DNA of 34,509 bases from a virus (taxonomy: Duplodnaviria > Heunggongvirae > Uroviricota > Caudoviricetes): IMG/VR virus record IMGVR_UViG_2541047783_000002, one strand, 5' to 3'. Numbering within the stretch: position 1 is the first letter of the stretch; each line of letters starts with the position of its first letter. Below the pieces are notes generated by a model that worked only from the letters and a program-made list of their open reading frames with translations, was not told where the DNA came from and made no database searches. Below, one piece after another: positions 1-34,194 of this stretch. The position numbers and the translations under genes were made by a program.

Positions 1-405
1 GCTCAGTTGTACGGTGCCTTTTGCCGTCAGCGAGGCAGCAGGCACTCCCGTTATCTGACTCCACGGGTGAGTGTGGCTGACGGGTGCCTTGCCGGCTGCA
101 AGGTCGTATGCAGCCTTGACGGCTTTTGGTGTGGCGGCCAGCGTTTCAGAGGTGCTGTTGGTGGCACTGCTCAGTTGGGTGAACCCCTTAGCTGTCAGTG
201 TCGCGTCCGGGTGGTTACGGGAACGTACGTGTTCAGCCAGTGACTGTGCGGCTTCCTCCGTTTTTTTCTTCAGCCATTTCGTCCTGTTTGCCAGTTGCCG
301 GGGGGCTCGATTTGATATCCCGTCAGCACCACCCAGAACCGGATCTGATGTCTCCAGTTGATAGATATTTTCTTCCCACTTTTCTGTTTCATTCAGGTTT
401 CCCAT
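1..405 (-). CDS. tail fibre protein, N-terminal part (partial, continues beyond window start)
   Basis: Manual translation from ATG at 405..403: MGNLNETEKWEENIYQLETSDPVLGG...RNHPDATLTAKGFTQLSSATNSTSETLAATPKAVKAAYDLAAGKAPVSHTHPW...; contains the conserved QLSSATNSTSETLAATPKAVK-type motif of enterobacterial phage tail fibres; no stop before position 1. Confidence 0.8.
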   Translation of the reverse strand, partial: MGNLNETEKWEENIYQLETSDPVLGGADGISNRAPRQLANRTKWLKKKTEEAAQSLAEHVRSRNHPDATLTAKGFTQLSSATNSTSETLAATPKAVKAAYDLAAGKAPVSHTHPWSQITGVPAASLTAKGTVQLS

Positions 406-407
406 AA

Positions 408-986
408 TCAACTGCTCCCGTGGTTATAACTGCCATCATGGATGGCGGTATTGTTATAGCGAATGGCCACAGACTGATACTCCAGGCTGGCCAGATGGCA
501 GCGGGCCGGTGCAAATGCAGCGAGCGTCTGACGCAGCATCGCGGCCTGATCGTTAGTAATGGGCTGTTTCAGAATAACGCGATAAACCGCCCAGGCGGCT
601 GCATCTCCATGAACAAACAGTCCGTTATAGCTGCGATTGCCGTCGTAACTGAGACGACCTGTGCCTTCAATCAGATCCACTTCACCAAAGCCAAAACGGC
701 GGATAACTTCCCGGATTGACCACGGCGTCCCTTTATACCGGTGTAGTTCGATGGCTGCTTTTATAAGCATGCGGCGAACATCGTCCGATTCCGCCAGCTC
801 CCAGCCATCGCCAGACAGTGAGAACTGCTCGCCCAGCCATGGCAGCGCAGAACTGTCGACGATATCGACGAGAAAGACCATCAGTACGCTCAGGTCGATG
901 TTATCCAGCCGTCCTGTCAGTCTTCCCAGCGTCCTGAGACTGATATCACCCTCAAGCGGTGGCGGGAGTTGTAATGGCTCAGTCAT
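408..986 (-). CDS. baseplate/tail protein, P2 gpI / Mu gp48-like
   Basis: 192 aa ORF directly upstream of tail fibre gene and downstream of J-like gene; size and position as gpI. Confidence 0.7.
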   Translation of the reverse strand: MTEPLQLPPPLEGDISLRTLGRLTGRLDNIDLSVLMVFLVDIVDSSALPWLGEQFSLSGDGWELAESDDVRRMLIKAAIELHRYKGTPWSIREVIRRFGFGEVDLIEGTGRLSYDGNRSYNGLFVHGDAAAWAVYRVILKQPITNDQAAMLRQTLAAFAPARCHLASLEYQSVAIRYNNTAIHDGSYNHGSS

Positions 987-2082
987 CAGACACTCCAGTC
1001 ATGTTAAGTGTGATCGCCGTACAGTTTGCCCATTCGTTTTCTGCCACCACCCTCAGTGCCGGTGTCACCAGTTCAACCTGGTACACCCCGGAAACGGACA
1101 ATGCACTGATAATCTGGCTGGGGACAATATCGCGCCCCAGCGTGGCGGCACGTGATGCCACCCAGTTCTGGATGGCACTGTTGGCGGCATCTTTTACAGA
1201 CCCGGCATCCTGATCACGATAGATCGTAATCCTGGCTTCAATGGTGTAATCCACCTTCACTGGTGTTTTAGCCCGCACTGTATCAGTGAGTGGCCTGACT
1301 TTCTCATCAGAGCAGAAACTCTCTACCAGCGTGAGAACACCGCCGTCCGGCAGACCGGTACTGAGCAGCGGATACAGATCTACGGTCCCGGGAACCGGGG
1401 AAAGCACAGCAACATCGACAATGTTGGGATGGGCCTGCATGGCATGAAAGCGGTATGCGCCACGGCTTCCGGCATTGGTGAATGACTCCGGGGCCAGCCT
1501 GATACGCTCCCGGAGCCTGTCATCGTCTTCCTGTTCTGAACCGCCGGAACTGGCCGTCAGATTGCTCACCAGCAGGTCGACGTTATCAATCTCATCGAGT
1601 AACTGACTGACCTGCGCAGGTTGCCAGCCGTTACCAGCGGTACCGGGTTCGGTACAGGTGGCCGTGACATTGACCAGCAGCAATCCGGCCTTCAGTACCA
1701 CATCTGTATCGGTGGCAAAAATAACGCTGTCGGAAGCGCTGACGCGGGTGCCTGCCGGGATCAGCACATCAATGGCCAGTGCCTCATCTACGGAGAACTG
1801 GAGCGTGGTGGTGGCAGGCTGCGCGGCAAGACGGTATACACCGACCAGTTCACCGAGGTAATCAATCATCGGCTCACGGGCAAAGGCGACAAGATTCTGC
1901 TTTGCTGCCTCCTGTACCGCAACCCTGACCAGCATTTCGCGATAGGCCCACAGATCAATCAGCAGACGTTCTGCCTGTGCCGGGTACAGCGTTTTGCCGG
2001 TATCCGCTTCATACTTCGCAATCATTTCTGCCGTGATTTTGTCGGCATCGCGTTCAATAAAATCGGGTTCTGTCAGCGCCAT
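979..2082 (-). CDS. baseplate J-like protein (P2 gpJ / Mu gp47 family)
   Basis: 367 aa ORF, position between W-like and I-like genes, overlaps neighbours by a few codons as typical of baseplate operons. Confidence 0.75.
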   Translation of the reverse strand: MALTEPDFIERDADKITAEMIAKYEADTGKTLYPAQAERLLIDLWAYREMLVRVAVQEAAKQNLVAFAREPMIDYLGELVGVYRLAAQPATTTLQFSVDEALAIDVLIPAGTRVSASDSVIFATDTDVVLKAGLLLVNVTATCTEPGTAGNGWQPAQVSQLLDEIDNVDLLVSNLTASSGGSEQEDDDRLRERIRLAPESFTNAGSRGAYRFHAMQAHPNIVDVAVLSPVPGTVDLYPLLSTGLPDGGVLTLVESFCSDEKVRPLTDTVRAKTPVKVDYTIEARITIYRDQDAGSVKDAANSAIQNWVASRAATLGRDIVPSQIISALSVSGVYQVELVTPALRVVAENEWANCTAITLNMTGVSDD

Positions 2083-2420
2083 AGCAGCTCCTGAGTCCGG
2101 GTCTGTCCGTCTGAGCCTTTCCAGCTCACCCGGAGCGTAAGATGTTCGCCGTCGACGGCGGGTTTAACTGACATAAGCTGGCAGCGGGGCTCCCAGCGCC
2201 GGATGGCATCGACGGATTCGCGCACCACATGCGGAATGGCCCGGTCTACAGGCCAGTCGATATAAAGATGCAGATTGCTGCCGAACTCCGGGCGATGCGG
2301 GTCGCTGCCGCGGGGAGTCCGCAGGATAATTTGAATCGCCTGCCGGATATCATCCAGCCCCCGGACAATTTCGCCGGGAGCCTGCAGGGCTGGTTGCCAG
2401 AATACTGAGGTCGTTTTCAT
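2073..2420 (-). CDS. baseplate wedge protein, gpW/gp25-like
   Basis: 115 aa, size and position of P2 gpW / T4 gp25 family between V and J. Confidence 0.75.
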   Translation of the reverse strand: MKTTSVFWQPALQAPGEIVRGLDDIRQAIQIILRTPRGSDPHRPEFGSNLHLYIDWPVDRAIPHVVRESVDAIRRWEPRCQLMSVKPAVDGEHLTLRVSWKGSDGQTRTQELLWR

Positions 2421-2474
2421 GGGGGCAGTATTGCCCCCGTGCGGGAACGCTGATATTAAAGGCGTTTAAAAAGC

Positions 2475-33146: not shown

Positions 33147-33183
33147 AAAAGCGCAATGGATAACCTGTTGCGCTTTTTTTATT
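33147..33183 (+). terminator. rho-independent terminator ending the early operon
   Basis: Stem GCGCAA (33151-33156) / TTGCGC (33168-33173) followed by TTTTTTTATT. Confidence 0.75.
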
Positions 33184-33213
33184 CTGGCAGAAAAACATAT
33201 CACCGGAGGAAAT

Positions 33214-33858
33214 ATGTTTGATGCATCCTTGCTGAATCTGCCATGGGCAACGCTGGTGACGCTCACCAGTGGTTATATCGGCTATTTTATTGCGAACGTG
33301 GGGCTGAAGAACCATCACAAACCCATTGAGGTGACGTTTTCGACGCTGATTTTTGGTTTGCTGTCAATGATGGTTTACCAGGCTGTTATGTGGGCAGGTC
33401 TGAATTCGTGGCTGGCGACACCTCCAACACTTCTTTGCGCTTTTGCATACGCTGCATTATGGAGAAAATATGGGCGTAAATGGATGTACAGATTCCTCAG
33501 AAATAAGGATATATCATGGTCTGATGATACCCCCTCTGCCTGGATGCGTATGTTTGATCAACATGGATACTATATCAGCGAGGCGTATGTCTATCTGAAG
33601 AATGGTACTGTGCTGCTTTCTGAAAATCCGGGGAAATTTGAAGGCCAGGCCAGCGGTTCTTTTGTGTTAGGAGTGGAAAAAGACATAGTGATGTATGTCA
33701 CTCATGAAAAAAAACCGGGGCGCGATGAATGGATTGAAAAAGATGTTGAAAGTAAAAGCTGGGGAGCGATGGCAACCTATATCCCTGCAGATCAGATTGC
33801 CATGGTGAGGATCAGACGAACCAGAAATAAAGCTATTAGCGCACGGCAGAAAGATTAG
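33214..33858 (+). CDS. membrane protein of unknown function (three predicted N-terminal TM helices plus soluble C-terminal domain), end-proximal cargo gene
   Basis: GGAGG SD; sits after the early-operon terminator and before the prophage end; visibly AT-richer than the rest of the prophage. Confidence 0.55.
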   Translation: MFDASLLNLPWATLVTLTSGYIGYFIANVGLKNHHKPIEVTFSTLIFGLLSMMVYQAVMWAGLNSWLATPPTLLCAFAYAALWRKYGRKWMYRFLRNKDISWSDDTPSAWMRMFDQHGYYISEAYVYLKNGTVLLSENPGKFEGQASGSFVLGVEKDIVMYVTHEKKPGRDEWIEKDVESKSWGAMATYIPADQIAMVRIRRTRNKAISARQKD

Positions 33859-34055
33859 TCCCGTGGTGGCGGTGCATCGTCATCAGACTGAGAAGAACGG
33901 TTATCTGATGAATCGCCTGATGGTCCATAACGTTCTGACTCAAAGGTAACGCATCCTTTCATATCTTCGGAAAAGTCAGATGGGTTGCTATTTTTATCGG
34001 GCATGGGCAATATTTCTCCATTCACGGAACACGGATTAGAAATTTTACCACTCAT
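33855..34055 (-). CDS. hypothetical acidic Ser/Asp-rich small protein (66 aa)
   Basis: Convergent with 33214..33858; weak RBS; low-complexity composition. Confidence 0.25.
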   Translation of the reverse strand: MSGKISNPCSVNGEILPMPDKNSNPSDFSEDMKGCVTFESERYGPSGDSSDNRSSQSDDDAPPPRD

Positions 34056-34153
34056 ATTCTCTGTTTTTTGTGAACTGCTACCGTTTCACATACAGCAAAA
34101 CAATTTCATAAAATTATTCGGTAGCATTCGTTTTAACCCACTCCCGTTCGAAA

Positions 34154-34194
34154 TTATCTCACGAATCACCATTCATTTATCTCACGTCCCTTCA
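34154..34194. repeat. prophage right terminus: two direct TTATCTCACG repeats (34154-34163, 34177-34186) and terminal ...CTTCA-3' (5'-TGAAG on the inward strand)
   Basis: Repeats 23 bp apart in the last 45 bp of the element; Mu-type ends begin 5'-TG; host reading frame stops at the TGA formed by the terminal nucleotides. Confidence 0.6.

Follow-up and report, generated by a model that had tools for sequence, protein, structure and literature searches.

Transposable phages of the BcepMu type have been described since 2004, and the reference for BcepMu itself (AY539836) is Summer et al. 2004, J Mol Biol 340:49. Here, we compare this group with a 34,509-bp stretch of DNA (IMG/VR record IMGVR_UViG_2541047783_000002; G+C about 55%), referred to as a whole as the window. 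The window very probably covers the right-hand 34.2 kb of a transposable myovirus prophage that is of the BcepMu type, measures approximately 38.15 kb, and is inserted in, and inactivates, the chromosomal spt gene of Escherichia coli. Both BcepMu and phiE255 have been described with 23-bp end repeats and TG...CA termini (PMC2920897; PMC2628397). In an avian E. coli strain, a 2610-bp inversion arose between subcultures inside a 40.8-kb "BcepMu-like" prophage (PMC11610265), and another study reports inducible prophages of the human gut that were classified as Bcepmuvirus (PMC12629997).

Results

Gene organization

Positions 1-34194 form a dense, two-armed map of open reading frames (ORFs) with a coding density of 95% (Table 1). 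The ORFs of the minus strand extend from about 21848 to position 1 and those of the plus strand from 24829 to 33858, with a 3-kb stretch of mixed orientation between the arms. Every module listed in the initial annotation, from the repressor through the baseplate, gave strong family matches in Pfam, PHROG, and NCBIfam scans and is encoded by an uninterrupted ORF. All window ORFs are full length relative to their family profiles, and no disruption of the in-window copy was found, which bears out the earlier statement that obvious frameshifts and internal stops are absent. The ORF map also agrees with early genes running rightward from 24829 and with a leftward late arm; the late start, previously put at about 21881, shifts to 21848, as indicated by the holin annotated in identical prophages of other strains. 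A tRNA search of the whole window found no tRNA genes, in keeping with an element that integrates elsewhere than at tRNA sites.

Direct comparison with BcepMu substantiates the proposed BcepMu-style organization. The gene order is the same, gene for gene, as a mirror image of the BcepMu record with its divergent arms, and protein identity is 31-78% for almost every gene, whereas the layout of coliphage Mu differs. As judged from the ORF map and collinear tblastn matches, the early operon points toward the nearer end and finishes with GemA and Mor, and the lysis, head, and P2-type tail genes lie opposite. The early operon is headed by a gp16-family helix-turn-helix (HTH) gene divergent from a cI/Cro-type repressor that is 36% identical to BcepMu gp17. 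The transposase aligns with BcepMu gp09 (Tn552/IS1604 type) at 68% identity over 581 residues (E 0), with rve as its sole Pfam match, and the ATPase encoded directly downstream is 59% identical to BcepMu gp08 over its full length. PDB sequence searches with the transposase and the ATPase returned only marginal matches (retroviral-integrase cores and generic P-loops), confirming the fold class and no more.

Table 1. Features of the 34,509-bp window, with positions counted from its first nucleotide
Feature	Coordinates	Strand	Evidence or remarks
Tail-fibre gene, 5' part, first 135 codons	1..405	-	translation MGNLNETEKW... from ATG at 405
P2-type baseplate/tail genes	408..5306	-	PHROG E 3e-15 to 2e-131; 46-62% identical to BcepMu gp45-gp51
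gpI	408-986	-	
gpJ	979-2082	-	
gpW	2073-2420	-	
gpV	2475-3071	-	
gpD	3068-4222	-	
gpX	4210-4425	-	
gpU	4422-5306	-	
Tail tape measure, 983 aa, continuous	5306..8257	-	phrog_28 E 1e-134
Tail assembly chaperone, gpE-like	8415-8750	-	phrog_166 E 2e-33
Tail tube	9133-9654	-	68% identical to BcepMu gp40
Tail sheath	9654-11081	-	78% identical to BcepMu gp39
Head-tail joining genes and DUF2190 protein	11071..12572	-	homologues of BcepMu gp38, gp37, gp36, gp35
Major capsid protein	12582-13535	-	44% identical to BcepMu gp34
I-type protease/scaffold	13549-14664	-	capsid and I region: phrog_1005 E 1e-129, phrog_976 E 2e-163
G	14879-15337	-	
F	15340-16161	-	
Portal	16142-17635	-	59% identical to BcepMu gp29
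TerL (438 aa) and Mu gp27-type TerS	17635..19496	-	Terminase_6N 2-212/215, Terminase_6C 1-154/155, Phage_Mu_Gp27
Two small conserved proteins, then lysis cassette	19499..21848	-	phrog_1403, phrog_669, phrog_1528
Rz	20133-20783	-	
Rz1 lipoprotein, proline-rich, out-of-frame, embedded in Rz	20171-20437	-	frame and lipobox
SLT endolysin	20677-21495	-	Pfam SLT
Holin	21498-21848	-	
P-loop orphan, 247 aa	21979-22722	+	N-terminal P-loop GPVGSGKS
134-aa ORF	22698-23102	-	
71-aa ORF	23101-23316	+	
Orphan D12 N6-adenine methylase	23508-24272	+	no recognised partner nuclease among neighbours
Repressor terminator hairpin	24279-24303		
HTH_3 repressor	24389-24766 (alternative start 24736)	-	Pfam; 36% identical to BcepMu gp17
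Sigma-70-like early promoter (candidate)	24753-24781		consensus match; palindrome ATCCCATTTTTGGGAT in spacer
Control region upstream of repressor, 92 bp	up to 24828	-	
Early operon	24829..33119	+	
gp16-family small HTH protein, 62 aa	24829-25017	+	NCBIfam TIGR04111 BcepMu_gp16, 96.5 bits vs cutoff 34
IclR-type wHTH	25070-25378	+	
DUF3102 protein	25389-26300	+	
rve DDE transposase, 589 aa	26304-28073	+	phrog_310 E 6e-148; Pfam rve 35.8 bits vs cutoff 32.6
AAA_22/ExeA-type ATPase, 388 aa	28084-29250	+	AAA_22 E 4e-20
Gam	29550-30080	+	E 6e-41
Small ORFs between Gam and DUF2786		+	
DUF2786 protein	30950-31633	+	
GemA	32058-32507	+	E 1e-40
Mor	32479-32865	+	E 5e-41
78-aa ORF	32883-33119	+	
End-proximal membrane protein, 214 aa, last gene before right end	33214-33858	+	phrog_12870 E 7e-92
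Acidic 49-aa ORF, unannotated, convergent on membrane-protein gene	33855-34004	-	GGAG upstream of ATG
Right terminus	34100..34194	.	ends ...CACGTCCCTTCA
Host DNA: first 105 codons of E. coli spt (serine palmitoyltransferase)	34195..34509	-	similarity to E. coli

Termini and host junction

Of the two limits of the annotated stretch, 1-34194, only the right one is an end of the element. It falls exactly at 34194 (...CCCTTCA): similarity to the E. coli chromosome (spt) begins at 34195, and similarity to prophage copies elsewhere ends at 34194/34195. Position 1 is not an end of the element but the edge of the window inside the tail-fibre gene, a minus-strand gene that begins at 405 and continues past the left edge. 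In the 100%-identical sibling of strain MS1657, a further 3956 bp lie beyond window position 1 before the left end is reached. They contain the rest of the fibre gene, an invertible fibre and assembly cassette, a gene for a Gin-like serine recombinase, and the left end itself.

Two direct copies of TTATCTCACG, at 34154-34163 and 34177-34186 (23 bp apart), are presumed to be transposase-binding sites. The left end of the siblings reads TGATGCGCCGCGCGATAAATG... When the ends were examined for TG...CA termini, the right end (...TTCA, in the window) and the left end (TGATGCGCC..., seen in siblings only) showed the same architecture. The first letters of each terminus are TGA, lengthened to TGAAG at the right end and, in BcepMu, at either end. 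Counting inward, a pair of GYGMGATAAWT-type repeats occurs at positions 12 and 35 of each terminus, hence the 23-bp spacing. The terminal pattern TGAAG..GTGAGATAWWT is common to the element and BcepMu. Reads across host junctions would begin, on the element side, with TGAAGGGACG or TGATGCGCCG.

The host gene has 390 codons and belongs to an accessory lipid cluster (acyl-AMP ligase/epimerase/ACP/spt) adjoining lptFG. This copy interrupts it after about codon 105; the left junction lies outside the window. Positions 34195-34200 (GGTAGG) are expected to represent the 6-bp target duplication, a length taken from the siblings. The same spt insertion was found in none of the complete E. coli genomes in the collection.

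Sibling copies and mobility

Public genomes already contain a copy of the element with 100% identity to the in-window part. This copy, the MS1657 prophage (NZ_CP135957.1, 3557825-3598680), has 100% nucleotide identity over window positions 1-34194 and differs only by an ISCro1 element (IS66-family) in the intergenic gap between the G and I genes. Siblings with the same ends and gene set (MS1657, B1.H1.18, ST69/O15:H18, R9, and A20) occupy chromosomal sites other than spt. Both ends could be recovered in four genomes, where the element measures 37.2-38.2 kb, or 40.9 kb with the insertion sequence (IS). The insertion sites are all different (ybcI, the dcuC-dpiA intergenic region, ssnA, and sgbU), and perfect 6-bp direct repeats flank the four siblings (GTACGG, TGCCGG, CAGAAA, and TGCCAA). 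The early arms of the siblings are 98.7-100% identical, and the late arms are 100% identical except in A20 (97.3%).

Near-identical copies at five sites, spt included, are difficult to account for without recent transposition or infection, and this evidence for mobility is strong, if indirect. It lends support of the same indirect kind to the earlier suggestion that the prophage is transposition-competent, as each of the four other sites shows a 6-bp target duplication; we infer from the sequences that the copy in spt is competent as well.

Prevalence was assessed in 5426 complete E. coli genomes, with presence defined as at least 80% coverage. The late arm was present in 503 of these genomes and the early arm in 112. 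The siblings carry the Gin-like serine recombinase and the invertible tail-fibre/assembly cassette (L003 38822-43103; L006 3697-7066; L008 35175-39456), and the arrangement and orientation of this cassette vary among the sibling genomes.

Early control region

The Pfam matches of the repressor are limited to the HTH, with no LexA-type peptidase domain. Given the lack of an autocleavage domain, induction by the SOS response or mitomycin C is not to be assumed. The candidate early promoter and its palindrome (Table 1) lie at the divergence point of the repressor gene and the early operon.

Lysis, packaging, and head genes

In the lysis cassette, the endolysin stop codon has been lost at 20767-20769 on the minus strand, where GAA stands in place of the TAA found in strain A20. 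The change adds 30 residues to the endolysin, creates a 107-nt overlap with Rz, and is synonymous in the Rz frame. Three siblings at different sites (MS1657, ST69, and B1.H1.18) have their endolysin annotated with one and the same accession, WP_001610532.1.

TerL belongs to a lineage other than that of BcepMu TerL, to which it is 24% identical; TerS is 47% identical to its BcepMu counterpart. The TerL identity is 54-66% when the comparison is with transposable phages of Pasteurella, Alteromonadaceae, Rhodovulum, Pelagibaca, and Thiobacimonas. The stretch 17635-19502 has no nucleotide match in Escherichia phage PhiKM or Klebsiella phage KP12, two relatives described below. Sequence comparison indicates exchange of TerS and TerL as a single module, relative to PhiKM, KP12, and BcepMu. 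That the 438-residue TerL might be truncated was considered and rejected, as the two Pfam terminase domains are present in full and other transposable phages have full-length homologues of similar size.

The gap between the G and I genes (14665-14878) comprises 214 bp of non-coding DNA and is the ISCro1 insertion site in MS1657 and in VTB96929v. The gap in BcepMu is similar (203 bp). In Mu, the gap at the corresponding position contains the strong gyrase site and a late promoter.

Tail, baseplate, and fibre genes

The tube/sheath region matches phrog_23 (E 6e-140). The chaperone gene is overlapped by a +1/-2 frame extension that reaches 8333 and, according to frame analysis, would encode 32 residues of acidic character. 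It resembles the extension of the Mu chaperone homologue, for which the Mu record annotation gives a verified -2 frameshift. A run of five G residues within 8413-8429, two codons before the chaperone stop, is a likely slip site. A tblastn search for conservation of the extension frame in BcepMu was uninformative, and the +1/-2 frame is preferred because of the character of the peptide and the five-G run only.

Tandem Repeats Finder detected a 261-bp tandem duplication in the tape-measure gene (5907-6441; 2.0 copies, 92% match). At this gene's position, PGAP reports a split pseudogene in MS1657 and B1.H1.18 and an intact 2952-bp coding sequence (CDS) in ST69 and A20. We reject the pseudogene interpretation because the ORF is continuous and the 2952-bp CDS at the same position in ST69, within a 100%-identical late arm, is annotated as intact; the tandem duplication is probably what triggers the PGAP flag. 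The PhiKM assembly has a gap at the position of the duplication.

The tail fibre comprises 515 residues in the identical sibling. Window positions 1-177 (fibre codons ~77-135) recur twice in the sibling's fibre gene, about 300 and 468 bp further on, with 98% and 90% identity, which points to a fibre shaft with internal repeats.

Cargo genes

A central block of variable cargo on mixed strands (21979..24272) separates the late and early arms. Homologues of the P-loop orphan occur in E. coli only, with at least 63% identity. A PDB sequence search with this protein found nothing meaningful, and the AlphaFold2 model, built from a 10-sequence alignment, had a mean pLDDT of 48 and a pTM of 0.31, so that the fold is not usable. 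PADLOC, run on ten cargo and small early proteins, recognised the D12 methylase only, through methyltransferase models, and no defence system. For the membrane protein encoded next to the right end, the relationship to DUF6338 is weak: its own Pfam match falls below the cutoff, and several of its homologues carry PF19865. These homologues are found across Enterobacterales and also in Bartonella and Bradyrhizobium.

One might picture the E. coli lineage as a distinct, still-active BcepMu-group mosaic that took its TerS/TerL from another transposable-phage lineage (the Pasteurella, Alteromonadaceae, Rhodovulum type) and has a Mu-style Gin invertible fibre cassette and cargo with, perhaps, a new defence or counter-defence function, the cargo in question being the P-loop orphan, the 134-residue and 71-residue ORFs, the DUF6338-related membrane protein, and the 49-residue ORF. 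As a whole, this picture is speculative, and we consider it rather improbable.

Discussion

Proposed life cycle

The steps outlined here follow from homology, except for the length of the 6-bp duplication, which was observed in the siblings. In a lysogen, the HTH repressor would silence the divergent early promoter. Derepression would switch on the rightward early operon, yielding the Tn552/IS481-related rve DDE transposase and the ExeA-type AAA+ ATPase. The transposase would bind, at each TG...CA terminus, the pair of GYGMGATAAWT repeats spaced by 23 bp, and together with the ATPase would carry out replicative transposition into near-random targets, leaving 6-bp duplications, while Gam may shield the DNA ends. 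Mor, the product of the last conserved early gene, located beside the right end, would then activate the leftward late operon from about 21848, leading to lysis proteins, a Mu-type head, and a P2-type contractile tail. Packaging would be by the headful mechanism, with host flanks carried, as published for BcepMu (PMC2920897).

Integrity of the prophage

The initial annotation described the element as apparently intact. This description is accurate for the in-window part, where the ORFs are uninterrupted; for the whole element, intactness is not demonstrable from the window because some 4 kb, including one end, lie beyond it. Several observations weigh against a complete and active prophage. 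The missing left part would hold the left end, preceded by the remainder of the fibre gene and by the invertible segment with its invertase; the completeness and target duplication of this copy are therefore presumed, and its induction and transposition are predicted. The repressor matched HTH families only. The promoter and operator calls are consensus matches only, and the scan that produced them gave 5 promoter-like sites when 3.8 are expected by chance. The endolysin, through the loss of its usual stop codon, carries 30 extra residues that may affect its function.

These points bear on the best-surviving alternative, in which the prophage would be defective as a whole despite an intact in-window part, through damage outside the window (for instance a deleted left end or a broken tail-fibre or invertase region) or a subtle lesion such as the loss of the endolysin stop, and would give neither transposition nor plaques. 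The window does end inside the tail-fibre gene, in a region that has decayed in siblings (ST69 has fragments of a fibre pseudogene, and MS1657 carries an IS66 element), and the endolysin stop codon is indeed lost. On the other hand, siblings with the same endolysin variant sit at different sites with both ends and clean 6-bp duplications, which indicates that the lineage moved recently, and each window ORF matches its family profile in full. We therefore regard a defective prophage as unlikely, although it deserves more weight than any other alternative, and favour a mobile BcepMu-type prophage.

The prophage exemplifies a BcepMu-type transposable phage that occurs commonly in E. coli, with its late arm in about 9% of complete genomes, and that is evidently still mobile, given near-identical copies at different loci with clean 6-bp duplications. 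The prophage acts as a natural insertional mutagen, which in the present case has knocked out spt. The exact end sequences and the 6-bp duplication provide a simple delimiting rule for the curation of such prophages, and where RefSeq records call the tape-measure gene a "pseudogene", as some do, this is an artefact of annotation. Beyond annotation, the significance of these findings is slight.

Comparison with known phages

Coliphage Mu (AF083977) has the same lifestyle as the element and shares with it the Gam, GemA, Mor/C, gp27 TerS, portal, F, G, and I families. These common families could suggest a canonical Mu-like prophage (Muvirus) whose early region has been inverted. The remaining comparisons make that explanation highly improbable. 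BLASTP gave no significant alignment of the transposase to MuA (best E 0.48) and none of the small HTH protein to Mu Ner, so that the labels "A" and "Ner-like" given to these genes earlier hold as positional analogies only. All genes but c share one strand in the Mu record, the other exceptions being only the alternative G(-) S'/U' coding regions, which upholds the contrast with Mu transcription drawn in the initial annotation. Mu has a Mu-type tail, unlike the P2-type tail of the window, and a separate C activator, whereas the window has a single Mor-family gene. The siblings show 6-bp target duplications, as opposed to the 5 bp of Mu. The Mu invertible fibre segment with Gin is matched only by the left ends of the siblings. 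Finally, the divergent layout is native to BcepMu, and in the record of Pseudomonas phage B3 the transposase gene is likewise on the minus strand near the low-coordinate end. The BcepMu layout, the homology to gp09, and the absence of MuA and Ner alignments refute an inverted Muvirus.

The P2-type tail and baseplate genes might alternatively belong to a P2-like prophage or domesticated tailocin cluster that merely adjoins transposon genes, but this can practically be dismissed, since the tail genes directly adjoin complete modules of Mu type for head, packaging, and lysis, no site-specific integrase was matched among the approximately 50 ORFs scanned, and the boundaries and duplications of the siblings refute it by showing that the whole 37-38 kb is mobile as a single unit, which has TG...CA ends and leaves 6-bp duplications. 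Likewise, where Peduoviridae combine a site-specific integrase with P2-type capsid and terminase, only the tail and baseplate are P2-type here, and the head and packaging genes are Mu-type.

Among transposable phages, the B3 group has a transposase of the same family that is 57% identical over its full length and a TerL that is 32% identical. B3 is a siphovirus. Two further named relatives are PhiKM (PQ738613, filed under Bcepmuvirus), with 95-99% nucleotide identity over most of both arms and a transposase identity of 98.5%, and Klebsiella "phage KP12 clone KP12_2" (OM835952), for which the corresponding values are about 85-88% and 94.1%. Both have a different TerS/TerL module (TerL of 531 residues in PhiKM and 507 in KP12), and the repressor region and some small early genes differ too.

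At the nucleotide level, similarity to BcepMu itself is patchy. Megablast with window positions 1-24000 gave no BcepMu match, and blastn gave patches only, with 64-75% identity, which falls short of the approximately 70% or higher genome-wide nucleotide identity to BcepMu of the strict ICTV definition of Bcepmuvirus. An E. coli prophage of 40.8 kb that is apparently related, judged by its host source and its size, has been reported to share 69.7% identity over 25% coverage with BcepMu (PMC11610265). The central and end cargo is different as well, as BcepMu has an acyltransferase and a Dam gene is absent from its record, and BcepMu is reported to be without the Gin-like invertase and invertible fibre segment of its E. 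coli relatives (PMC2628397). What the two elements share is the divergent gene order together with the holin/SLT/Rz/embedded Rz1 cassette, the Mu-type head, the P2-type tail, and the 23-bp-spaced end repeats. Judged on these comparisons, the element ranks as family-level kin of BcepMu and, by the approximately 70% criterion, as a member of another genus, despite the GenBank label of PhiKM.

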